From contig NC_086097.1 in assembly GCF_963921235.1 (NCBI RefSeq), positions 34,908,001 to 34,972,000 of the forward strand: a DNA stretch of 64,000 nucleotides, written 5' to 3'. Every line of letters starts with the position of its first letter. Position 1 is the stretch's first letter. Source of the stretch: Mobula hypostoma. Its lineage: Eukaryota. Under the pieces are notes generated by a model that saw only the letters and a program-made list of their open reading frames with translations, ran no database searches and was not told where the DNA came from. Positions 14,586 to 63,120 of the stretch are shown here, in pieces. Position numbers and translations under genes: made by a program.

Positions 14586-14733
14586 CAAGATTAGAGAGTA
14601 TTAACTATAATGCAAGTTTGGACAGACCTGGTGATGAACTTGATGCCCTTGAGGCTATTGTTGCAAATGATATGAAGACGGCTGGAGGGGCAGGTAGTGT
14701 TGAGGAAGCAGAGAGTCTGTGAAGGACATAGAT

Positions 14734-15397
14734 GCAGCTCGCAGCGGCCACTCCAGTGGTGATGTCTGTTATCTATCAAGTAGGGTGCCGTGCACAATCC
14801 TGATTTGATGGATACAGATGCAAGAGCATGGAGGAACATCTGGTGAAACTTCTGAAATGCCTGCTTCGCTGCCGCTGCTGCTGTGTGATCCAGAATCTCT
14901 GGAGGGGAAGGCCCCAAGTCCTCAGCTTCGCTTGTTGCTCAGCGGCCAGGGCGGGGTCAAAGCGCTCGGAAGAGAATGGCGCTCGGTGCTCAGTGTTGGA
15001 GCGCTGGTCAGAGGCTCGAAATTTTCGGACGGACTCGGAGTCCGCTGCGGTCGAGTGCTTCCAATGGTGCTGCATCGGCAAGTTTCTGGTGCTTGGAGAT
15101 TCGTGGCAGGGAGAGTTTCTCCCTTCTACCATCTGCGTGAGGTGATGAGGCTATCGGGACTTGAGACTTTTTTTTTACCGTGCCCATGGTCTGCTCTTTA
15201 TCAAATTACGGTATTGCTTTGCACTGTTGTAACACTTTTTTATAATTATGTGGTTTTGTCAGTTTTAGTCTTGGTTTGTCTTATGTTTCTTGTAATGTCA
15301 GTCTGGAGGAACATTGTATCATTTTCTAATGCATGCATTTCTAAATGAAAATAAACAAGGACTGAGTGTCCTCATAATCTAATCTAATCTAATCTAA
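14734..15397 (+). mobile_element. Non-autonomous retroposon with (AATCT)n tail
   Basis: Interrupts a CR1; AATAAA followed by AATCT repeats at the 3' end; second copy inverted at 62531-63120. Confidence 0.75.
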
Positions 15398-15599
15398 TTA
15401 GGAGAATGAGCAAAGAAGTGTAGGAAATAAAGGTGTAGACTATTTTCTAAGGAGATAAGTCAAAGATTAGAGATGCAAAGGGAACCATAGAACACTACAA
15501 CACCAAAAACAGGCCATTCGGCCCTTCTAGTCTGTGCCAAAACTTTATTCCGCTAGTTCCATTGACCGGCACCCAGTCCATAACCCTCCAGACCTCTCC

Positions 15600-18429
15600 C
15601 ATCTATCCAATTTATTCTTAAAACTTAAGAGTGAGCCGGCATTTACCACATCAGATGGCTGCTCAATCCGCACTCCCAACCACTGAGTGAAATAGTTCTC
15701 CCTAATGTTCTCTCTAAACCTTTCACCCTAAAGCCATGTCCTCTTGTACTCATCTCTCCTAACCTAAGTGGAAAGAGCCTACTCACATTTACTCTGTCTA
15801 TACCCCTCATAATTTTGTAAACCTCTATCAAATCTCCTGTCATTCTTCTATGCTCCAAGGAATAAAGTCCTAATCTGCTCAATCTTTCCCTGTAACTCAA
15901 CTCCTGAAGACCCGGCAACATCCTAGTAAATCTTCTCCGCACTCTTTCAATCTTACTGATATCCTTCCTATAGTTAGGTGACCAGAACTGCACACAATAC
16001 TCCAAATTTGGCCTCATCGATGTCTTATACAACCTCACCATAACATCCCAACTTCTACACTCGATACTTTGACTTATGAATGCCAGGATGTCAAAAGCAT
16101 TCTTTACAACCCTGTCTACCTATGACGCCACTTTCAGGGAATTATGTATCCGAACTCCCAGATCCCTTTGTTCCTCGCACTCCTCAGTGCCCTACTATTT
16201 ACTGTGTATGTCCTGCCTTGATTTGTCCTTCCAAAATGCAACACCTCACACTTGTCTGCATAAAATTCCATCTGCCATTTTCTGGCCCATTTTTCCAGTT
16301 GGTTCAGATCCCTCTGCAAGCTTTGAAAGCCTTCCTCGCTGTCCACAACGCCTCCGATCTTAGTGTCATCAGCAAACTTGCTGATCCAATTTACCACATT
16401 ATCATCGAGATCATTGATATAGACAACAAACAACAATGGTCCTAGCACAGATCCATGAGGCACACCACTAGTCACAGGCCTCCAGTCTGGGAAGCAATCA
16501 TCCACTACCACTCTGTCTTCTCCCACACAACCAATTTCAAATCCAGTTTACAACCTCTCCATGGATACCTAGTGTCTGAACCTTATAAACTAACCTCCCA
16601 TGTGGGACCTTGTCAAAGGCTTTACTAAAGTCCATGTAGATAACATCCACAGCCTTTCCTTCATCTACTTTCTTGGTAACCTCCTGGAAAAACTCTACAA
16701 GGTTCATTAAACATGATCTACCATGCACAAAGCCATGCTGACTATCCTTAATCAGCCCTTGGCTGTCCAAATACTTGTATATCTGATCTCTCAGAACACC
16801 TTCCAATAATTTACCTACTACTGATGTCAGGCTCATTGGCCTGTAATTACCTGGTTTACTTTGAGCCTTTTTTAAGCAACGGAACAACATGAGCTACCCT
16901 CCAATCCTCCGGCACCGCACCCGTGGCTAAGGACATTTTAAATATTTCTGCCAGGGCCCCCACAATTTCTACACTAGTCTCTCTCAAGGTACGAGGAAAT
17001 ATCATGTCAGGCCCGGGGGAATTTATCTACCTTTATTCACTGTAAGGCAGCAAGCACCTCCTCCTCTTTAATCTCTATATGTTCCATGACACCACTGCTT
17101 GTTTCCCTTCTTTCCATATATGCTATGCCAGTTTCCTGAGTAAATACTGATGCAAAAATACTGTTTTAAGATCTCCCCCATCTCGTGAGGCTCCACACAT
17201 AGACAACCACTCTGATCTTCTAGGGGACCAATTTTGTCCCTTACTATCCTTTTATTCTTAATATACCCTTAGAAACCCTTTGGGTTTATCTGCCAAAGCA
17301 ACCTCATGTCTTCTTTTTGCCTTCCTGATTTCCTTCTTTAGTATTTTCTTACATTTTCTATACTCTTCAAGTACCTCATTTGTTCTTTGTTGCCTCTACC
17401 TGCTATACACCTCTCTTTTTCCTTAACCAGATTGCCAATATCCCTTGAAAACCAAGGTTCCCTATGCCTGTTAACTTTGCCTTTAATCCTGGCAGGAACA
17501 TGCAAACTCTGCACTCTCAAAATTTCTCCTTTGAAGGCCTTCCACTTACTGAACACATCCTTGCCGGAAAATAACTTATCCCAATCCACTCTTCCTAGAT
17601 TCTTTCTCATTTCCACAAAATTGGCCCTTTTCCAATTTAGAACCTCAACTTGAGGACCAAACCTATCCTTATCCATAATTAATTTGAAACTAATGACATT
17701 ATGGTCATTGGACCCAAAATGTTCTCCTACTTCTGTCACCTGACCTGTCTGGTTCCCTAATAGGAGATCAAGTATTGCATCATCTCTCGTAGGCACCTCT
17801 ATATATTGATTTAGAAAACTTTCCTGAACACATTTGACAAACTCCAAACCATCTAGCCCTTTCACAGTGTGGGAGTCCCAATCAATATGTGGAAAGTTAA
17901 AATCCCCTACTATTACAACTTTCTGTTTCTTACATCGGTCTGCTATCTCTCTACAGATTTGCGCCTCCAATTATCTCTGACTATTGGGCTGTCTATAATA
18001 CAACCCTATTAGTGTGGTCACACCTTTCCTGTTCCTTACCTCCACCCATATGGCCCCTGTAAACAACCTCTCTGGGCTGTCCTGTCTATGCACAGCTGTG
18101 ATATTTTTCCTGACTAATAAAGCCACTCCTCCCCCTTTCATCCCTCCCCATCTGAAACAATGGAACCCTGGAACATTAAACTGCCAGCCCTGCCCCTCCG
18201 GCAACCAAGTCTCACTAATAGCAATAATGTCGTAATCCCACGTGCCAATCCACACCTTAAGATCATCTGCCGTACCTACAATACTCCTTGCATTGAAATA
18301 GATGCACCTGAGAACATTTCTATCACGTAGAAACCTTTGATTTCTGTCTATACATGCAGTCCTCACATGACCTCTCTCCTCCTCCACCTCACTATCTGCT
18401 CTTACACTCTGGTTCCCCTCCCCCCGCAA
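15600..18429 (-). pseudogene. CR1 ORF2 (AP endonuclease plus reverse transcriptase), disrupted
   Basis: Colinear fragments 17971-18429, 17338-17970, 16537-16890, 16134-16526 and 15643-16041. Confidence 0.9.
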
Positions 18430-18432
18430 ATC

Positions 18433-19364
18433 TAGTTTAAACCCCCCGGAGCAGCATTAGCAGATCTACCCGCAAGGATGTTAGTCCCCCTCCAGTTCAG
18501 GTGCAAACCGTCCCGTCGGAACAGGAACCAACTTCCTTAGAACAAAGCCCAATTGTCCAGAAACATGAAGCCCTCCCTCCTGCACCATCTCCTTAGCCAC
18601 ATGTTTAGCTGCATTATCTTCCTATTTCTATCCTCACTCGCACGTGGCACAGATAGCAATCCTGAGATTGCAACCCTGGAGGTCCTGCCCTTCAACTTTG
18701 CACCTAACTCCCTAAACTTTTTGCAGGACCTCCTCCTCCTTCCTGTCCATGTCATTGGTCTCTACATGGACCACGACATCTGGCTGCTCACCCTCCCTAT
18801 TGAGAATACCAAGAACTCGATCCGAGATATCACAGACCCTGGCACCAGGGAGGCAGCAGACCATCTGGGATTCTCGATCTCTCCCACAGAACCTCTTATC
18901 TGTCCCCCTAACTATCAAATCCCCTATCACTACTGCTCTCCTCTTTTCCCACCTTCCCTTCTGAGCTGAGGGTCCAGTCTCAGTGCCAGAGACGTGACCA
19001 CTACAACTTGTCCCTGGTAGGTCGTCCCCACCAACAGTATCCAAAACGGTATACTTATTATTGATGGGAACAGCCACAGGGGTGCTCTGTTCTCTCTGTC
19101 TATTCCCCTTCCCTCTCCTGACAGTCAACCAGCTACCTGCCTCCTGATTTTTAGGGGTGACTGTCTCCCTGAAACTCCTGTTTATTTCTGCCTCTGCCTC
19201 ACGAATGATCTGAAGTTCATCCAGCTCCAGTTCCAGTTCCCTAACTTGGTTTGTCAGGAGCTGCAGCTGGATGCACCTTTTACAGGTGTAGTCATCAGGG
19301 ACAATTGTGCTGTCCCTGTCTTCCCACATACAGAGCACTCAACTGCCCTAACTGTTGCCTCCAT
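18433..19364 (-). pseudogene. CR1 ORF1 (zinc finger/leucine zipper plus SGNH/GDSL-like esterase), frameshifted
   Basis: ATG at 19364 (MEATVRAVECSVC); ORF fragments 18712-19338 and 18537-18755. Confidence 0.8.
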
Positions 19365-21858
19365 TACCTACTCCTAAGTTAATTAAATTAATTAAGGGAA
19401 CTTACCCAGCCTTATCTCACTGGGAGCAAGCTCATCCTCAGCTCTGCTCACCGAAGCCTCTCGAGCTGAAGCCTCAAAGCTCCACTCCTACCCTGAGCCA
19501 CTCACACACTTGCCACTCCTCTTCAGTTACCCCTCCTTTTATTTGTCCCTGCCAATTATCTCAAGTACTCACTCCCTCTAATCAACTAATTAACACTCTG
19601 TTTAACCCTTCAGTTGCCCTCCACGCTCCTTTTTAAAGCACACTCACCTCAGCTGCTTTCCAGCACTCAGCACTCTCCCGAGCCCCTCACTCCTCCTCCC
19701 GCTGTGACGGTCCCGCGATCACACTTGGGAGTCCTCGTGCAGGATTCCCTAAAGGTTAACTTGCAGGTTGAGCTGGTGGTAAGGAAGGTAAATGCAATGT
19801 TAGCATTCATTTCAAGAGGGCTACAATATAATAAGGCATTGGTCAGAATGAACTTGGAGTACTGTGAGCAGTTTCAGGCCCCTTATCTAAGAAAAGATGT
19901 TCTGGCATTGGAGAGAGTTCAGAGGAGGGTCTCACGAGTGATTCCAAGAATAAAAGGATTAACATGAGGAGTCTTCAGCTCTGGGCCTATATTTGCTGGG
20001 GTTTAGAAGGATGTGGAGGGGGGAATCTAATTGAAACATATCAAATGTTCAAATCCCTATGTCGAGTGGATGTGGAGAGAATGTTTCCTATAGTGGGAAT
20101 TTTAGGACCAGAGGCCACATCCTCAGAATTGAAAGATGTCCATTTATAACAGAGAAGAGGAATTTATTTAGGCAGAGGGTTCAAAGTTTATCTTTGGGTC
20201 TGTGCAATACATTGCACTGATGGCTGTGGTTGCCAAGTCTTTGGGTATATTTAAAGCGATAGTTGATAGGTTCTTGAGTCAGGGCGTCATCAAAGGTTAC
20301 GGGGAGAAGGCAGGAGAGTGGGTTGAGAGGGATAATAAATCACCATGGTGGAATGGTGGAGCAGACTCAATGGGCCATTTGGCTTAATTCTGCTCCTTTG
20401 TCTTATGGTCTTAATGACTCGGGTTGTTTTCCCTGGACTGATCGGGCAAACTGATAAAGGCATTTAAAGTTATGAGATTGTGAAAGAATTGAATAATAGA
20501 GTGCCTGGCATTAGGATGGCGAGGGAAGGGAAGGACAAAAAAACGGTGTGCTGATGGATATGATTTTTAAATTTGGCATCTTGGCCATCACAGATATGAC
20601 AAACAAAGGGCCTGTTCCCATGTTGTCCTGCTCAATGTTCCATATAAGTTCTTTATTTGCAATAAGATTTTGTTCTGTAGGGTTTAAGGATAGATTTGGC
20701 GTGGATATTGAATATTATGTGGAGAAGGATATAAAGTTGTTGAGTTATTATTTAGAAAATTTCCAATCTAGTATTCTTTGATATGTTTAGAGTAGTTTTC
20801 TTTTTGTTTGGTACCATAAGAGGGCAATAAAGAACCTAAAATAGAGCCACAGTTTTGTATGAAAAGCCAATTCATTTTTATCCTTTGATTTTAAATGCTG
20901 GAAGCTGATCTTTTAACTCGCTATCGGACAGAAATTGCTCATCATCTCTAGTCATTTATTTTTGTTTCTAATATCACTTCAGGGACTGAGCCCACTTCTT
21001 TTTAGCCAACTTAAAATGCTCCACCTTTGTGGATATATTCATAGAGTGTTGAATGTTTATAAATTTACAGAATGAGTTAAAATAAAATGCATGAATCATT
21101 GAGCTATGATATATTTGTAATTTCCTCAAAAGAAGGCACAGATGGTTTGCATGGATAAAGAAACATTGTAATGCAGGAATACCTTAAACTTAAACTCAAT
21201 GCACAATGTTGGGATCTATTGGGACACAGTGATGTTATGGTAGTGGTCCAAAGTTGGAAAAAACTTCCTTCTCCAGCCGAGGTGAAAAATAAATATAAAA
21301 ATGTCAGAAGTTGCTCAGTGAACAGATCAGCTATAAATAATGCATGCACGTACACACAGGAATGTAATTTATTGTTTTTATGCTAGTTACTAGTTAGGGT
21401 TTGCCTTCGTTCAAGTTTGCAGGTACAGAACTCTGTAAGGTACAAATATATTACACAGAAGTGAGTTCAATGAGTTATTATTGAAAGGAAAGAGTACTCA
21501 GTCACTATATTTACTGGAGCAATCAATGCTAACAGATCTGTGAGAATAGACAATGCAAAGGTATTTAATGAATTTTGTAGTGCTGCTTCAGCTAGGTTGT
21601 TAACTGCTCAGTTAATAAAGACCATAAAACATAGGAGCAGAAATATATTAAAAAAATCTCGGGTCCCTGAGTGTCAGTGTTTCTCAACCTAGGGCTTCCA
21701 CGAGAGAGCATGATTTAAAAAAAAACAAATCGGTTTTATGAACTTGGCGCAATGCACAATGGGAGTACTGGCAGTGGTGGGCAGTGACTGAGCAGCCCTG
21801 TTGGTGGTCTCTCAGCCCAATATGGCAGTGCACTGTACAACCGTGTTTATTTGGTTGC

Positions 21859-22085
21859 AAACAACAGGAATACTGCAGATGCTGGAAATTCAAGCAACAC
21901 ACATCAAGGTTGCTGGTGAACGCAGCAGGCCAGGCAGCATCTCTAGGAAGAAGTACAGTCGACGTTTCAGGCCGAGACCCTTCGTCAGGACTGACAAAGG
22001 GTCTCGGCCTGAAACGTCGACTGTACCTCTATCTAGAGATGCTGCCTGGTCTGGTGCGTTCACCAGCAACTTTGATGTGTGTTGC
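21859..22085. mobile_element. Self-inverted Penelope-like terminal-repeat insertion (copy 1)
   Basis: ~97-bp inverted arms (21892-21988 and 21991-22087) plus a 33-bp one-sided tail; 13-bp TSD TTTATTTGGTTGC at 21846 and 22086. Confidence 0.9.
21956..21993 (-). ncRNA. Minimal type I hammerhead ribozyme motif, intact core
   Basis: Minus strand reads CAGTC-CTGACGA-AGG gtctcgg CCT-GAAA-CG-TC^GACTG: stem I CAGTC/GACTG, CUGANGA and GAAA boxes, GUC cleavage triplet. Confidence 0.8.
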
Positions 22086-22749
22086 TTTATTTGGTTGCGT
22101 CCATTTTCCCTTTTTGATGCGAGGTAGGGGAGGCCATTGATAATCAGTGAGCGCTGAATTGCACAGAAGGGAGGAGGGTTGGCTGATGAGGAGAGTGAAG
22201 TGTGTTTTCCAAGCATAGAAAGGACTCACCTAACTTGGGCTGTGACATCAGCTTCTCCCTCCTGAATTACCTCCCCCAACTTCCCCTTACGAAAATAGTA
22301 CGGTCAGATTTTGCTGAGCATCTTGAAGATGAAGAATAGCTTACTTAGCGGACATTTTTCATCATATGAACCAGTTGAACAAGTCTCTGCAAGGCCTTGG
22401 AGAAAAAGTTTTGACTTCAAGTGACAAGATTCTTGGATGTAAAAGGAAACTGGATCATGTTGCAAAAGGAAATCTTGAAATGTTTCCACTGCTGTTTGGG
22501 CTTGAGAGTGAGAAAGGATATCAGAAGGTCTTGAGACTTACTGAAAACCACCTGGAAAACTGCAGAAGACAATTGAACAATATTTTTCCAGTCTTTCAAC
22601 ACAAGTGAGGGACCCTTTCACTGAATCTTCTGCTCAGCCTGAGGACTTGACTTTGAGAGAGATGGAAGAACGTTGTGAGCTGCAGTCTGATCATGCAGTC
22701 AAGACGAGTTTTGGGTTTAAATTCAAAAGCCTTCTAACCTGAACTAAAG

Positions 22750-22963
22750 CAACACACATCAAAGTTGCTGGTGAATGCAGCAGGCCAGGCAGCATCTCTA
22801 GGAAGAGGTACAGTCGACGTTTCGGGACGAGAAGGGTCTCTTCTCGGCCCAAAACGTCGACTGTACCTCTTCCTAGAGATGCTGCCCGGCCTGCTGCGTT
22901 CACCAGCAACTTTGATGTGTGTTGCTTGAATTTCCAGCATCTGCAGAATTCCTCGTGTTTGCG
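22750..22963. mobile_element. Self-inverted Penelope-like terminal-repeat insertion (copy 2, opposite orientation)
   Basis: Inverted arms 22747-22833 and 22841-22927 plus a 36-bp tail; TSD TAACCTGAACTA(AAG) at 22735 and 22964. Confidence 0.9.
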
Positions 22964-23194
22964 TAACCTGAACTAAAGGTCTCTCTTAAACTGCCCCATT
23001 CAAATGATGGCCTTTTGTCAAATGCCTATTTAAGCAAAACACTGAGCAATGTTGTTTGAGTAGGCAACAGTGCCTTTTTATCAGAGAATACCTTTCTATC
23101 TGATACTGATAGTTTTATCTCAAACAATATCTTCTTTCATTGAATCGATTGCTAATCTCAACATTCAGATGTGACATTTGGTGGTTTGGTTTTC

Positions 23195-23545
23195 AAATCA
23201 GAATCAGGTTTAATATCACTGGCACATATTGTGAAATTCATTAACTTTACAGTAACAGTACAATGAAATACATGATAAATACGGGACAAAAACCCGAATT
23301 ACAGTAAGTATATATATGTAGTTAAGTTAAAATAAATTGTGCAAAAACACACAAAAAGGTTCATGTGTTCAGTGTCCCATTTAGAAATCAAATGATAGAG
23401 GAGAAGAAGCTGTTCCTGACTGGCTGAGTGTGTTGTTACAAGCTACTGTCTCTCCTTCCTGGCAGTAACGATATGGGAGCATGTCCTGGGTGGTGGGGGT
23501 CCTTCACGATGGACACCGCCTTTCTGAGGCACCACTCCTTGAAAA
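23195..23545 (-). mobile_element. Rex1/Babar-type LINE 3' end
   Basis: AATCAGAATCAG tail and AAGCTGTTCCTGA... 3' region shared with the Rex-type copy at 41.5 kb. Confidence 0.6.
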
Positions 23546-23744
23546 TGGCATATAAATTTTTTTAAAATGGTGAAATGTTGGAAGTGATGTAAGTGTTGAA
23601 TATATTAAAGTTCCAGTTGTCCTTTTTCACAGCAAATAAATACAATCAATTCAGCTGCTTTTAACATGCTCGACATGGAACCTCTGTACTCTGAGTAACT
23701 TCCCTGAGAAATATCCACAGGGAGCTCAAGAGTGTTGTACAAGT

Positions 23745-28617: not shown

Positions 28618-28658
28618 TTATTCTATTATTTTTATTTGCAAAGTTTGTCATCTGTTTG

Positions 28659-29304
28659 CAACACACATCAAAGTTGCTGGTGAACGCAGCAGGCCAGGCA
28701 GCATCTCTAGGAAGAGGTACAGTCGACGTTTCAGGCCGAGACCCTTTGTCAGGACTAACTGAAGGAAGAGTTAGTAAGAAATTTGAAAGTGGGAGGGGGA
28801 GATCCAAGATGATAGGAGAAGACAGGAGGGGGAGGGATGAAGCCAAGAGCTGGACAGGTGATTGGCAAAGGGGATATGAGAGGATCATGGGACAGGAGGC
28901 CCAGGGAGAAAGACGGGATGGGGGGGGGACCCAGAGGATGGGCAAGGGGTATAGTCAGAGGGACAGAGGGAGAAAAAGGAGAGAGAGAGAGAGAAAGAAT
29001 GTGTGTATAAAAATAAATAACGGATGGGGTACGAGGGGGAGGTGGGGCATTAGCGGAAGTTAGAGAAGTCAATGTTCATGCCATCAGGTTGGAGGCTACC
29101 CAGACGGAATATAAGGTGTTGTTCCTCCAACCTGAGTGTGGCTTCATCTTTACAGTAGAGGAGGCCGTGGATAGACAAGTCAGAATGAGAATGGGATGTG
29201 GAATTAAAATGTGTGGTTACTGGGAGATCCTGCTTTCTCTGGCGGACAGAGCGTAGGTGTTCAGCAAAGCGGTCTCCCAGTCTGCGTCGGGTCTCGCCAA
29301 TATA
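28659..29304 (-). mobile_element. 5'-truncated Penelope-like element: GIY-YIG endonuclease C-terminus plus terminal repeat
   Basis: YIGETRRRLGDRFAEHL...HFN...EEQHLIFRLGSLQPDGMN (29050-29304); 13-bp TSD TGTCATCT(G/T)TTTG at 28646 and 29305. Confidence 0.9.
28720..28757 (-). ncRNA. Hammerhead ribozyme motif with a G8>A core mutation (probably inactive)
   Basis: TAGTC-CTGACAA-AGGGTCTCGGCCT-GAAA-CGTC-GACTG. Confidence 0.65.
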
Positions 29305-29867: not shown

Positions 29868-30430
29868 TAGCCATCCTAAGCTCCCAGTTGCAAACCATTT
29901 AAACTTTTCTCCCTGTGCTCACATCGACTTGTCTGTCCATTGCCTCCTGCATTGGCATGGTGAGGACAAATACAAGCTAGAGGAACAGTAACTCATATTC
30001 TGCCAAAGTAGTCTACAGTCCAGTGGCGTGAATTCTGAATTCTCCAATTTCAGGTAACTTGCTCTAACTCTATTCCTTTCTCTTTCCTCCTGATCCATGT
30101 CGGTCATTTTGTATATCCCCTTCTTCCCAGCCCCAGCCCTCTTTGCTCTCCTTCAGCTGATCTGCGTATTACCCATACTAGCCAGTTGATCCCCTATTTT
30201 CTTCTCTCCCCCAACTGTTCCCCTTTTGTTATGCATTCCTCCCTTATCAGGTTTCACTCACAACCTTCCTTTCTTATCAGATTCCATAATCTATAACCTT
30301 GAGGAAAGGTCTCGGCCTAAAACGTTGACTGGTTGTTCATTTCTATAGATGCTGCCTGGTCTGCTGAGTTCCTCCAGTACTTTGTGTATGTGTTGCTTTG
30401 ATTTCCAGTGTGTGCAGACTTTCTCGTGTT
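29868..30430 (+). mobile_element. Older Penelope-like remnants (GIY-YIG C-terminus and decayed terminal repeat)
   Basis: Translates LPVANHLN..HIDLSVHCLL..KLEEQ*LIF..LQSSGVNSEFSNFR*, colinear with 29050-29304; decayed AGGTCTCGGCCTAAAACGTTGACTG at about 30307. Confidence 0.75.
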
Positions 30431-32261
30431 TACCTTTAGCCCTTTGTTGTTTTCTCAGCCTTTCTCGCTATCCCCACCCCTCCCTCTCCCACCTGGATCT
30501 ATCTGCCCATCAACCCCTCCTGGCTTGGATTCATCTCCAGCTACATCTCTATACCAGCTAAATACCCTTTACGTTCTCAGTCTGATGCAGGGGAATCCCT
30601 TTACTACCACAGATGCTGCTTGAACATTGAGTTCCTCTCGTAATCTGTTTCTTGCTCTAGATCCCAGCATCTATAACCTCATTATTGTTATTCACAGTTG
30701 AGGCATGGCTTCTCCCAAGATTTATAGGTTTAGATTTATCCCTAGATTTATTTCCCAACCTAAAAGTCCAGGAATTAATGGTATCAAAGGTTGTGGGGAG
30801 AAGGCAGGAGAATGGGGTAGAGACTGATAATAAATCAGCTATGATGCAGTGGTGGAGTAAACTCGATGAGATGAATGTTTTAATTCTGCTCTTATATCTC
30901 ATGGTATAATTCCAAGACCAATGTTCTACACCCTTCTCTGGAACAGCTGACCTTGAAACGGCAAATGACAGCTAAGGACCGAAGTAAGATTTGGCTCCCA
31001 GTTTAATTTGTATATTCTGTTCTATTCAGTGTGTGATAAGAAGGTGTCCGAATTCTTCAGGTAATTTGAAATCCTTTAAGATTCTGCAATGAGAAGGACT
31101 TGAGTGCAATAGACAGACTGTTTAAAGCTTGAGAAGAACAAAATTCCTTGGAGACAGAGGAGTCAGGCAGTTGTTCATTGGAGCTACATATACTCTGTTA
31201 TGGAAAACAAATAATATTCAGAGACAATAAATGGAATTGAATTGGTATTGGTTTATTATTGTAACATGGACCAAGATGTTTCTCTGGCATTGAAGCAGAA
31301 CAAGATAAAACAAATAACAATGCAGAATAAAGTGCAATAAAATGTAGCTTAGCATAGTTACGTAGAAAATCCTACAGCTCAATACGGGCCCTTCAGCCCA
31401 CAATGCTGTGCCAAACATGTACTTATTTTAGAAATTACCTAGGGTTACCCATAGCCTTCTATTTTTCTAAGCTCTATGTACCTATCCAAGAGTCTCTTAA
31501 AAGACACTACTGTATCTGCTTAATGAGGCACTCTCAGTTTGCGATTCATACCCATGGCATTCATGGTTTTCCTTCTGGTAAATTCCAATTTTGCAAATTT
31601 CCTTTTCCCCACTTCTGTTATCTGCTGACCTTCACTAACTCCATCATGATTAGTATCATGCGTACAGTGGTTGTTGAAATATAATATTTTTGGTATAGAA
31701 ACAAATGCTGTAGGTGATCAGTAACGTGGTGAGAGAAACTGCTTGTATTTCTCTCTCCAGATACTATTTTACTTTTCATATATGAAAGGTTCTATTTCAG
31801 ATTTCGGAAATGATGGTTTCCGCATTATTTTTCTCTGGCGCCTACTCTGGATCTTTAAAAACCTTATGGTGATATTAGTTTCTTGAAATTGGGAAAGGCA
31901 ACAGAAAAATTGCAGTCACTTTGGGGTAAAAAATACTCTAAGTGTTCATTTCTTTTTGCGCAGACTATTGATTTTGAAGATTATAAAAAAGATGTTTGCT
32001 TCCCCAATGCTGAAATCAGAGGCTTATTGTGAATATCTACTTTGATACTTATCAACGGATATGTAGAATCCGGTAGAAATGATTAGGACCAGATAGAAAT
32101 GATGTTAATTTAACAGACTGGGTGACCTTTCAAGAACTAATGGAAGTATTTCAAAGACTTGAACTTGCTTTAACTGGATTAGGTCATTATCTTTTCATCC
32201 AACTCGTTAAAAGAGTATTAGATATAAATTAAAGCCCCAGGATTAACTTGTAGCCTTTGAA

Positions 32262-44781: not shown

Positions 44782-45245
44782 GCAACACACATCAAAGTTG
44801 CTGGTGAACGCAGCAGGCCAGGCAGCATCTCTAGGAAGAGGTACAGTCGACGTTTCAGGCCGAGACCCTTCGTCAGGACTAACTGAAAGAAAAGTGAGTA
44901 AGAGATTTGAAAGTTGGAGGAAAAGGGGGAGATCCAAAATGATAGGAGAAGACAGGAGGGGGGGGGGGGGATGGAGCCAAGAGCTGGACAGGTGATTGGC
45001 AAAAGGGATATGAGAGGATCATGGGACAGGAGGTCCGGGAAGAAAGACAAGGGGGGGGGAACCCAGAGGATGGGCAAGGGGTATAGTCAGAGGGACAGAG
45101 GGAGAAAAAGGAGAGTGAGAGAAAGAATGTGTGTATAAAAATAAATAACAGATGGGGTACGAGGGGGAGGTGGGGCATTAGCGGAAGTTAGAGAAGTCAA
45201 TGTTCATGCCATCAGGTTGGAGGCTACCCAGACGGAATATAAAGT
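44782..45245 (-). mobile_element. 5'-truncated Penelope-like element inserted into CR1 ORF1
   Basis: Near identical to 28659-29117; HFIFRLGSLQPDGMNIDFSNFR*; 8-bp TSD GTTTGCCT at 44774 and 45246. Confidence 0.9.
44844..44881 (-). ncRNA. Minimal type I hammerhead ribozyme motif, intact core
   Basis: TAGTC-CTGACGA-AGG gtctcgg CCT-GAAA-CG-TC^GACTG. Confidence 0.8.
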
Positions 45246-56557: not shown

Positions 56558-57300
56558 AGACCAATTTATACTTGTGCGTCAAATCGACGCTGTAGGTATG
56601 GTGTAGCCATGTACCCTACACCATACCCTACGCCGTAGCCTGACGCGCACCTCCCCAAAAATGTTACTACGCGTCGCGGCGACACAGACCGCAACAACTG
56701 TGATTGGTCTGCTTGGTAGCCTTGCATTTCCTCCTACGCTGCAATAGCTTCCCATTGGGCGACTGAAGGGCAGGGAAGGAATTCTGGCTGCAATGCTTTC
56801 CATAAAGCTTTCCAGACCTCCAAAATTATGGAGGACCCTGTGCTTGACGCCAGTTTGTAGCTAGCTGCTACAGCCTGTTGACTTCCACCTGAAGCTAAAA
56901 CTCGAATGGTGATTGCCAGTCTCAGAGTATACTGTGCGTACACTGATGCGAAATAAATGGTTGGAGATGATGAACTAAATCGTCAAACCTATCTGCCGAC
57001 ATCCGAAAATATTTGAAATGCATTTCCTCGTCCGTGTCTCTCAGTGGCCGGACAAGCACAGAAAATTCACCCTCCTTCAGTTTCAGTCGCCATTGTTTGA
57101 AGTTTGAGTTTCTTCGTGTTGAGTTTCAACATGAAGAAACTCAACACAGTGGCATAGAAACCCCACCGCCAACTAGCGTTTTGGTGGTGAATTACAGAGC
57201 GACGCAGACACACCAATGCACAAGTATAAATGCTCACAACAGCATAGCCCACTTGTGTTGGCTACGGCGTAAACTAATACGCATAAGTATAAATCAGCCT
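56558..57300 (-). mobile_element. PIF/Harbinger transposon, internally deleted
   Basis: TIRs AGACCAATTTATACTTGTGCGT and ACGCATAAGTATAAATCAGCCT in TTAA contexts; transposase remnant [17 protein letters not shown] / [25 protein letters not shown]. Confidence 0.85.
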
Positions 57301-57896
57301 TAAGAGATTTTACAGATATGTTAAGAGCAAAAGGATTGCAAGGGACAAAATTGGTCCTCTGAAAGATCAGAGTGGTAATCAATGTGAGGAACCAAAAGAG
57401 ATGGCGGAGAACTTAAGTGCATTTTTTGCATCTGTATTTACTCAGGAAACCAATGTGGAGTCCATAGATGTGATGCAAATAGTATCAACTGCATGGACCC
57501 TATACAGATTACAGAGGAGGAGGCGTTTGCTGTCTTCAGGCAAATTAGGGTGGATAAATCCCCAGGGCCTGACAAGGTGTTCCTTTGGATCTTGCGGGAG
57601 GCAAGTGTAGAAATTTTCGAGGCTCTAGAAGAGATATTGAAATCATCCTTAATGGGGTGAGGTACCAGGAAAACTAATGTTGTTCCAGTGTTTAAGAAAG
57701 TCTCTGAATATAAATCAGCAAATTATAGGCCGGTGAGCCTGGAAAGGTTATTGGAAGGTATTCTGAGGAATATGAGTATTTGGATAGACATGGACTGATT
57801 AAGGCTAGTCAGCATGGCTTCGTGCATCGTAGGTTGTGTCTAACCAATCTGATAGAGTTTTTCGAGGAAGTTACCAAGAAAGTTGATGAAGGTAAG

Positions 57897-58124
57897 TGAA
57901 ACACCTTCAATAACTCCAAAAGACCAAGGTTAGGTAAAATACCGAAAGGCTTTTATTCGCTGTACAATACAACCTCCATGGTGAGTGTCTGCCCCCGGAC
58001 TGAGGGGGAGGGGCAAGGCGAAACACCTTTATACAGGATCTGTGGGAGGAACCACAGGGGCAGTCAGCAGAGGGGCGTGTTCAGACAGTTAACCCAGTTA
58101 CAACATTTATATGGTTTACCACCA
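57897..58124 (-). mobile_element. Short solo LTR (228 bp), Gypsy-like
   Basis: TG...CA termini; 4-bp TSD TAAG at 57893 and 58125; TATAAA and AATAAA on the minus strand. Confidence 0.8.
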
Positions 58125-58333: not shown

Positions 58334-58457
58334 AGCACTCACAACATGCTGGAGGAACTTAGCAGGTCGGGCAGCATCCGTGGAAATGATCAGTCAACGT
58401 TTCGGGCCGGAATCCTTCATCAGGACTGAAGTGGGAAGGGGCAGAGGCCCTAGCCCT
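58334..58457 (-). mobile_element. Penelope-like terminal fragment of a diverged subfamily
   Basis: Homologous to 44782-44890; splits CR1 RT at GTGC (58330 and 58458). Confidence 0.75.
58391..58428 (-). ncRNA. Minimal type I hammerhead ribozyme motif, variant with intact core
   Basis: CAGTC-CTGATGA-aGGattccggCCc-GAAA-CG-TT^GACTG (N7=U, GUU triplet). Confidence 0.72.
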
Positions 58458-59521
58458 GTGCTGGGTCTGTTGTTGTTTGCCATCTATATCAATGATGTGG
58501 ATGATAATGTAGTTAACCTATCAGCAGATTTGTGGATGACACCAAGATTGGGGGTGTAGTGGACAGTGAGGAAGACTATCGGGACTTGCAGTGGGACCTG
58601 GACCAGATGAAACAATGGGCTGAAAGATGGCAGATGAAATTTAATACAGACAAGTGCAAGCTGTTACACTTCAGTAGGACCAACCAGGATAGGTCTTCCA
58701 GAGTGAATGGTAAGTGCAGTAGGACAATGAATACAGGTCAATAATTCATTGAAAGTGAGCTGCCAGCAGAAGTGGTGCATGTGAGTTTGATTTCAAAGTT
58801 TAAAAGAAGTTTGGATAGGTACATGGATGGTAGGGGTATGGAGAGCTATGGTCCTGGAGCAGGTCAATGGGAGTAGTCAGCTTCAATGGTTTAGCACAGA
58901 CTGGATGGGCTGAAGGGCCTGTTTCTGTGCTGTACTTTTCTATGACTCTGTAACAATGACATTGTTATTGTTAAGAGAGGTTTTGCTCAACTGCCGTCCA
59001 TTTTTGCTTTTCTTTCCTAGTTGTTAATGCTTTCATATCATATGCTGTAGCAACTAAGAGTTATTTTGTTATCACTGAAATTTCAATTCCAGGCTGTGTC
59101 ATTATATCTAGTAGGATTGGTTACAACATGACTTCTGGTGATATTCATTCCTTTTCTATAATCTTCTGCACAGACTCCATTTAACCCCTTGTACATTGAC
59201 ACATGGGAGCATTATACTTCTCTGGGTTGAGGCCACAAAACAATTATTTTGTGACAGTGGAATCCACCATTGCGCTCACTTAACCAGGGTTTGGGCAAAC
59301 ACATCTTCTACAATGTAATAATTTTTCTCTTGGTGGTTTCATTCTAATAACAGTTATTTTCACAAAACTCTGCCAAAACAACACTTTCTTCAATTCTTTG
59401 TCCTACAGATTTCTCCTCCAGGCCTAACAATAACTTCCTTCCTAACTTGCTCAGACTCACACATTAAAGAATCACAATGCAAAAAGGGAGAGAATTCAGC
59501 TTCTGTGCCTTTGTTTTCTCG

Positions 59522-62403: not shown

Positions 62404-62530
62404 TATTTCAGTATGTCTGCTGCTTGTAAAAATCAAGCATGATTTATGTTTAATTTGTTTTTCTTGTGAATGCTTTGTGCCTGTGATGCTGTGATAAGTT
62501 TATCACTGATCCTGTGCATGTACATGCGTA

Positions 62531-63120
62531 TATTAGATTAGATTAGATTAGATTATGAGGACACCCAGTCCTCGTTTATTGTCATTTAGAAATGCATGCA
62601 TTAAGAAATGATACAATGTTCCTCCAGTATGATATCACAGAAACACAGGACAAACCAAAGACTAACACTAACAAGACCACATAATTATAACATATAGTTA
62701 CAGCAGTGCAAAGCAATACCATAATTTGATAAAGAGCAGACCATGGGCACGGTAACGATCAACTCTCAATAGTCCCCCGATAGCAGACGGCAGGAGGGAG
62801 AAACTGTCTCTGTCATAAACCTCCAGGCACCAACAACTGTTGATGCACTGGAAGCTCCAGCCCCCAGCCAACTCTGAGTCGGTCCGAAAACTTCGAGCTT
62901 CCGACCAGCCCTTCGACACTGAGCACCGAGCACCACCTCTGCCGAGCGCTTCGACCCCGTCCCGGCCGCCGAGCAACAGGCAAAGCCAAGGATTCGGGGC
63001 CTCCCCTCCGGAGATTCAGGATCACACAGTAACAGCGGCAGTGAAAAAGGCATTTCAGATGTTTCTCCAGATGTTCCTCCATTCTCTCACGTCTGTCTCC
63101 ATCAAATCAGAATTGTGCAC
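62531..63120 (-). mobile_element. Second copy of the (AATCT)n-tailed retroposon
   Basis: Reverse-complement homology to 14791-15397; ATTAG repeats at the left end. Confidence 0.8.

Follow-up and report, generated by a model that had tools for sequence, protein, structure and literature searches.

A 64,000-nucleotide stretch of the genome of Mobula hypostoma (NCBI RefSeq assembly GCF_963921235.1, contig NC_086097.1, positions 34,908,001 to 34,972,000 of the forward strand; hereafter the window, with coordinates counted from its first letter) contains a short non-coding insertion made of two inverted arms that meet at the edge of a hammerhead ribozyme motif. This focal insert raises the question whether such a palindrome propagates as a unit, with its junction inherited, or is formed anew when its parent, a Penelope-like element (PLE), inserts. 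The parent family, the layout of the insert, its target site duplication (TSD) and the independence of this palindrome from a second one nearby are established. The focal insert corresponds to the shortest form of a known PLE insertion pattern, in which everything between the arms has been lost, and it was most likely built afresh. We are confident that it is a one-off, heavily 5'-truncated by-product of PLE insertion, by whichever route; as to the route itself, we lean somewhat towards priming from both ends of the target cut.

Anatomy of the focal insert and its hammerhead motif

The arm at 21892-21988 is complementary to the one at 21991-22087 at 90 of 97 positions; the remaining seven are mismatches, and a spacer of 2 nt (21989-21990) separates the two. 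The insert proper (21859-22085, 227 bp) is enclosed by a perfect 13-bp TSD, TTTATTTGGTTGC, found at 21846-21858 and 22086-22098; the whole window holds two exact direct repeats of at least 11 nt with a start spacing of 230-250, and the focal TSD is the longer one. The features are as follows.

21846..21858, no strand: left copy of the 13-bp TSD, the last 2 nt of which (GC) also match the end of the tail
21859..21893, minus strand: one-sided tail, predicted to build, when the sense RNA folds, the outermost stem of a long hairpin
21894..21992, minus strand: long arm, which represents the 3' end of the terminal repeat of the PLE (sense is minus) and extends to the first base of stem I of the hammerhead; identical to 44782-44880 at 97 of 99 positions and to 28658-28756 at 96 of 99
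21957..21992, minus strand: minimal type I hammerhead motif, with stem I (21992-21989 with 21960-21957), CUGACGA (21988-21982), stem II (21980-21969) and GAAAC-GUC (21968-21961), numbered by comparison with PMC4209133
21989..21992, no strand: junction, made of the spacer GA (2 nt) and a 2-nt microhomology, CT, between the arms
21991..22085, plus strand: short arm, inverted and tail-less, with a hammerhead copy that lacks the 5' strand of stem I and carries G8>A
22086..22098, no strand: right copy of the TSD, the first 2 nt of which (TT) match the start of the tail

The original prediction, made from the letters alone, had described the 227-bp insert, its arms of about 97 bp, the spacer, the perfect TSD, the inversion at the edge of stem I and the defective plus-strand motif as they are found here. 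The tail is one-sided, as it had also claimed; its length has to be corrected from 33 bp to 35 nt, or 37 nt when the GC common to the TSD is counted, since the two outermost of the 97 arm pairs fall in the right TSD copy. This leaves 95 bp of short arm within the insert. The short arm terminates, again as predicted, at the same base as two solo copies of the family, both 5'-truncated and tail-less:

28658..29304, minus strand: C-terminal 84 amino acids of a GIY-YIG endonuclease (29053-29304), 3' untranslated region (UTR) and terminal repeat, with a 13-bp TSD containing one mismatch
44782..45245, minus strand: last endonuclease codons, with an 8-bp TSD

A head-to-head terminal copy, a palindrome at the junction, a one-sided tail of 30-40 bp and a TSD around the whole unit are also the layout of endonuclease-positive PLEs (PMC3846280, PMC8557442), with which the focal insert shares 5' truncation, inverted copy, one-sided tail and TSD. 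A typical Penelope insert such as Pen2a_Av has an adjacent inverted pseudo-long terminal repeat (pLTR), a 31-bp one-sided tail and a 9-bp TSD, with palindromes at inverted junctions (PMC3846280), and the same inverted-copy scheme appears in the legend of Fig. 2 of PMC8557442, where the mechanism is left undefined. The proposed Penelope origin and its known layout of inverted repeat plus tail thus agree with both the parent family and these sources. Unlike the published inserts, the focal one has neither an open reading frame (ORF) nor a direct pLTR pair between its arms, which are only about 95 bp long, and the TSDs of the window palindromes measure 13-15 bp, compared with 8-10 bp in the rotifer examples.

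Read on the minus strand, the focal motif consists of stem I (AGUC), CUGACGA, an extra A, a 4-bp stem II, GAAAC-GUC and GACU. Core boxes, stems I and II, the extra base after A9 and the palindromic 15.2-16.2 of minimal PLE hammerheads are present. The minimal metazoan motifs of PMC4209133 agree with the focal one in the CUGANGA and GAAA core, in a stem I of 4 bp, in the additional base between positions 9 and 10.1 and in the palindromic 15.2-16.2, and they likewise have no loop 3; they differ from the focal motif, known from sequence only, in that the latter has a G.U in place of the G10.1-C11.1 pair and one sense copy per transcript. Pairs of minimal motifs on opposite strands, 100-700 bp apart, have already been noted in that paper. 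The earlier description of a complete minus-strand hammerhead therefore holds for the core and for stems I and II, but the motif is of the minimal type without a helix III loop, its 10.1-11.1 pair is a G.U, and no Rfam match was obtained. At gathering score, Rfam gave no match in the whole window; at E values up to 10, region 21840-22110 gave five matches, all under gathering score and none of them to a hammerhead family, and three of these five are microRNA-hairpin models, which score any long hairpin.

As RNA, the focal insert is predicted to fold into a full hairpin of −178.7 kcal/mol (z = −23.7; none of 200 shuffles was as stable). Forcing the hammerhead fold within the whole focal transcript costs 58 kcal/mol over this hairpin, which bears out the earlier proposal that the hairpin masks its own ribozyme. 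Masking has little meaning here, however, because a single minimal hammerhead from another species, Schistosoma, showed no cleavage in vitro and dimers cleaved weakly (PMC4209133). By analogy, the focal motif would be of the dimer-dependent type and would hardly cut alone. Its predicted cut lies between 21961 and 21960, at arm position 67/68.

A second palindrome of independent origin

A scan for inverted arms of at least 25 bp with a spacer below 60 bp returned two palindromes in the window, both of the focal PLE family. The second lies 650 bp from the focal insert.

22735..22978, plus strand: second palindrome, in opposite orientation to the focal one
22735-22749 and 22964-22978: its 15-bp TSD
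22749-22832: short arm; its start base is also that of the two solo copies and of the focal short arm
22842-22925: long arm, matching the short arm at 80 of 84 positions
22926-22962: tail of 37 nt on the long arm

The tail length equals the 37-nt count of the focal tail, and the two tails are identical at 34 of 37 positions. The junction of the second palindrome is a different one: the turn is located in stem/loop II with a 5-nt templated insert, neither arm has a CUGA core, and the centre is a GAGAAG/CTTCTC mini-hairpin of 5-6 bp with a 5-nt loop. When long arm was compared with long arm and short with short over the 84 shared positions, none of the 11 variable columns held an arm-specific change common to both palindromes. 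The palindromes also differ at site 76 of the arms, where the focal arms and the two solo copies all have A and the second palindrome has G in each arm. Although this is a CpG position, the difference looks inherited, because at five other CpG sites changes were seen in 3 of 28 cases, none of them in the direction of site 76. With distinct junctions, distinct site-76 variants and no arm-specific change in common, each palindrome had its own source.

These observations come from two palindromes, and several palindromic masters may exist, but they favour a palindrome made anew with every insertion rather than a family that copies itself. A junction and linked mutations common to different sites, the mark of a MITE-like (miniature inverted-repeat transposable element) self-propagating unit, were not found between the window's two palindromes. 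Of the two readings put forward in the original prediction, a MITE-like ribozyme retroposon is consequently set aside, given the other junction, the other source and the missing CUGA core of the second palindrome, and a recurrent integration product is retained. Two separate insertions meeting head to head were also considered and rejected: in both palindromes a single TSD encloses both arms. G8>A occurs in the focal short arm and in the 28658 copy, but not in the long arm or the 44782 copy; this hint of two templates was not counted because the site is a CpG.

The site-76 variant is the change that turns G10.1-C11.1 into G.U. The U at 11.1 is found in both focal arms and both solo copies (21969, 22010, 28733 and 44857), and C stands there in the second palindrome and at 58347. 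The source lineage with the G.U was mobile nonetheless, a fact that would fit the dispensability of hammerhead cleavage for insertion in vitro in the PAc system (PMC11167929).

Routes to a palindrome

Two-ended priming would account for the anatomy in a few steps. The reverse transcriptase (RT)-endonuclease would cut both target strands about 13 nt apart, and the two 3' ends would serve as primers for reverse transcription of uncleaved RNA of the element. On the top strand, copying would begin at the tail start site; on the bottom strand, it would begin at a no-tail start site 35-37 nt further in. Both cDNAs would stop near the 5' edge of the hammerhead, and their 3' ends would be joined through the 2-nt microhomology and then filled in. 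The outcome would be two arms placed head to head, a one-sided tail and a TSD, with the short arm starting at the site used by solo copies. In both focal arms, the strand that continues the 3' end of a TSD copy is indeed antisense to the element, as would follow if the two ends of a staggered cut each primed reverse transcription, and the start base is common to both short arms and both solo copies (4/4). At the priming end, a 2-nt primer match to the template (AA) is present in both short arms and in neither of the two solo copies. Folding of the sense RNA predicts a long stem-loop in which the tail makes up the outer stem and the 3' strand contains the no-tail site (z = −2.2; 6 of 200 shuffles were as stable). 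The four palindrome arms end at positions 82-99, the focal ones about 30 nt beyond the predicted cut; as all of them extend past 67/68, the templates of the palindromes were uncleaved. The product is probably a dead end, since it is non-coding and its hairpin would bury both the ribozyme motif and the 3' stem-loop.

A PLE protein with the required activities has been described in vitro: it cuts and extends both strands, is predicted to form a dimer, uses uncleaved RNA and starts at two sites that bound the tail (PMC11167929). This system, PAc (a Poseidon element of the green anole), resembles the focal family in having two end points 35-37 nt apart on either side of the tail, located within or beside a stem-loop predicted downstream of the hammerhead, and in the copying of uncleaved RNA. 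It differs in clade and in the target sites, which are 50-69% AT in the window and 67-69% AT for the two palindrome TSDs.

Several points weigh against two-ended priming. Both arms of each palindrome carry the same site-76 variant, which is equally expected from a single self-copied cDNA; under two-ended priming, either a single RNA must have served twice as template or two RNAs from the same lineage must have been used. The mini-hairpin of 5-6 bp in the second junction suits a snap-back, and a 2-nt microhomology is expected by chance about once in six cases by our own arithmetic. Just two palindromes are at hand. PMC3846280 favours self-priming and PMC8557442 endonuclease-mediated resolution. 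The in vitro protein belongs to another clade than the focal parent, and inverted copies are not discussed in the available part of PMC11167929. A literature search, with most subscription papers outside its reach, returned no account of PLE inverted repeats formed by two-ended priming, and the available text of PMC5753468 has no passage on palindromic Penelope derivatives.

The source variant shared by both arms (2/2 palindromes) and the GAGAAG/CTTCTC hairpin with its 5-nt loop speak for fold-back, in which the 3' end of a cDNA begun at the tail site copies itself, or the RNA primes itself, and the hairpin is then resolved by the endonuclease or by repair at the no-tail site. Self-priming (PMC3846280) and endonuclease resolution (PMC8557442) are both published proposals. 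We consider this route possible, but not the one to be preferred: an extra step is needed for the short arm to stop exactly at the start of the solo copies, as it does in 4/4 cases, and fold-back at the focal junction would depend on 2 bp closing a loop of 2 nt, with +3.2 kcal/mol for the nearest pairing allowed, while a better snap-back of stem I (GACT on AGTC, +1.2 kcal/mol) is not the one used. Transcription of a whole palindrome and its re-insertion by the PLE protein, with inheritance of the junction, could explain why palindromes of much the same length (227 and 214 bp) make up 2 of the window's 4 young insertions. Non-coding DNA can be mobilised in trans by pLTRs (PMC3846280), PLEs have non-autonomous derivatives (PMC8557442; bioRxiv 10.64898/2026.07.22.740005), and two junctions might be explained by several masters. 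Such a MITE-like family is nevertheless quite unlikely in view of the differing junctions and source variants and the absence of common arm-specific changes between the palindromes; moreover, the hairpin, at −178.7 kcal/mol, would displace the 3' stem-loop around the start sites, and the 5' end of the re-copied RNA would have to hit the solo-copy start site every time.

The position of the focal turn at the motif edge could suggest that copying stopped and folded back at an RNA end made by the hammerhead. This is highly improbable and is contradicted for both palindromes by arms that reach 82-99, past the cut at 67/68; the second palindrome turns in stem/loop II, and insertion in vitro proceeds without need of cleavage (PMC11167929). 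The sequence itself makes a fold-back assembly error hardly credible. Palindromes are a known class of assembly artefact, but here the arms differ at 7 of 97 positions, a perfect 13-bp duplication bounds the insert and the tail is one-sided, and the second palindrome displays the same outer anatomy.

Known systems offer partial parallels to two-ended priming and to its product. In twin-primed L1 insertion, both target ends prime reverse transcription, the junction shows microhomology and the TSD is kept, as proposed for the focal insert; L1 twin priming copies two different parts of the RNA, whereas the focal insert holds the same 95 nt twice. Non-LTR retrozymes (bioRxiv 10.64898/2026.07.22.740005) are, like the focal insert, protein-free and PLE-related and contain a type I hammerhead. 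A retrozyme would need head-to-tail tandem units with complete motifs, and was rejected for a head-to-head insert in which the plus-strand motif is without stem I and carries G8>A. MITEs (PMC8969392) are similarly short and non-coding, with inverted ends and a TSD; a class II MITE was discarded in view of asymmetric ends, TSDs of 13 and 15 bp and a parent that encodes RT and GIY-YIG rather than a DDE transposon.

For the stopping point of the copies, three of the six family insertions in the window have their 5' ends within arm positions 82-99, namely both palindromes and one mini copy. The clustering at the hammerhead edge is a hint (p = 0.02-0.05 with crude nulls; the ends were placed by eye, and short copies are the more easily detected). 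A splice-acceptor-like stretch can be read just upstream in both solo copies.

30300..30431, plus strand: older single-armed mini copy with a tail, whose 5' end likewise coincides with the beginning of the hammerhead core; the 5-bp repeat on its flanks does not exceed chance
28759..28780, minus strand: splice-acceptor-like stretch (TACTAAC, pyrimidines, CAG), ending 2 nt before stem I
44883-44905, minus strand: counterpart in the 44782 copy (TACTCAC, pyrimidines, CAG), also ending 2 nt before stem I

It is possible that this stretch is the 3' splice site of a PLE intron; the branch-point-like heptamer would be just 13 nt from the acceptor. In Drosophila virilis, the Penelope intron ends at the 5' end of helix I (PMC4209133). 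The site may thus fix where copies stop. If copies stop at one site of the template, similar junctions will recur without inheritance. A shared junction position alone is consequently no proof of amplification, contrary to the original prediction, and linked arm-specific mutations are the better test. A more specific version, in which the element makes an RNA of about 135-140 nt (hammerhead, stem-loop and tail) with its 5' boundary at the acceptor-like site, to be copied by a dimeric RT-endonuclease from both cut ends, appears doubtful at present.

Parent element, surroundings and significance

All copies of the family in the window are 3' fragments. Pfam gave no match for the 84-aa fragment of the 28658 copy alone; its Atlas neighbours are GIY-YIG clusters at 0.92-0.93, the family being given on 15-26% of their members. 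A search of longer proteins with the fragment yielded 43 relatives among 102 candidates. The closest protein matches were from rays, with Mobula hypostoma (93%) and Hypanus sabinus (87%) at the top. All eight relatives scanned with Pfam had a GIY-YIG match, in one case above the curated cut-off, and RVT_1 was also found in four. In P0001, the relative with 93% identity, the frame runs on into the 3' UTR that is also present in the 44782 copy. P0001 contains a C-x4-C-x2-C linker, which is seen in that protein and not in the window itself; a CX2-5CxxC linker between RT and endonuclease is a mark of Neptune and Nematis (PMC8557442). Judged from these comparisons, the parent is a PLE of the Neptune/Nematis type, because the relatives of the attached fragment combine RT and GIY-YIG with this linker. 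Pfam searches of 86 open frames of the window (all 72 of at least 105 aa plus 14 of the 49 that are shorter and lie between 19 and 26 kb) yielded matches in eight, to RT and endonuclease families only; short exons would escape such a search. A 20-nt motif of the family matched 27 metagenome loci and one viral locus, but none of the 28 matches extends beyond 20-28 nt and all are put down to chance. Parts of 21000-23600 occur in 20 of 23 listed sequencing runs, always as contigs and with no RNA run among the holders listed; these occurrences were left out of the evidence.

The window holds one further copy:

58337..58447, minus strand: short copy of a more distant subfamily, with an intact core and C at 11.1

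An older Penelope-like 3' end occupies 29926-30680 on the plus strand, with an endonuclease-like stretch 67% alike to that of the 28658 copy and a decayed hammerhead remnant near 30590-30640; the mini copy at 30300-30431 sits inside the 3' UTR of this older element. Public ray gene models (P0003 and P0005), named as a kinase-domain protein and as mucin-2 isoforms, contain the PLE endonuclease at 76-80% identity and have probably absorbed element sequence. A long LINE (long interspersed nuclear element) with endonuclease and RT frames runs from 14590 to 18460 on the minus strand, and inverted LINE pieces, 82-92% alike and 40-54 kb off, occur at 57290-57900, 58750-58900 and 62530-63120. The region between the palindromes (22100-22735) we take, by eye, to resemble a decayed hAT-type transposase region; the one frame scanned there, 22545-22739, had no Pfam match.

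In itself the focal locus is ordinary, the dead stump of an abundant retroelement, and its value is that of a data point. The origin of the tandem and inverted structures of PLEs is still undefined (PMC8557442). Stumps of this kind retain only the ends and the junction, and a table of them for a ray genome could separate two-ended priming from fold-back copying. Were the short-RNA reading true, near-identical palindromes centred on the ribozyme would be reborn repeatedly without inheritance, as a family of look-alikes, and their junctions and arm haplotypes would constitute a large natural record of how PLEs build inverted repeats. Where such stumps lie in transcribed regions, each would yield a double-stranded RNA hairpin of 95 bp on which editing or small-RNA pathways might act.

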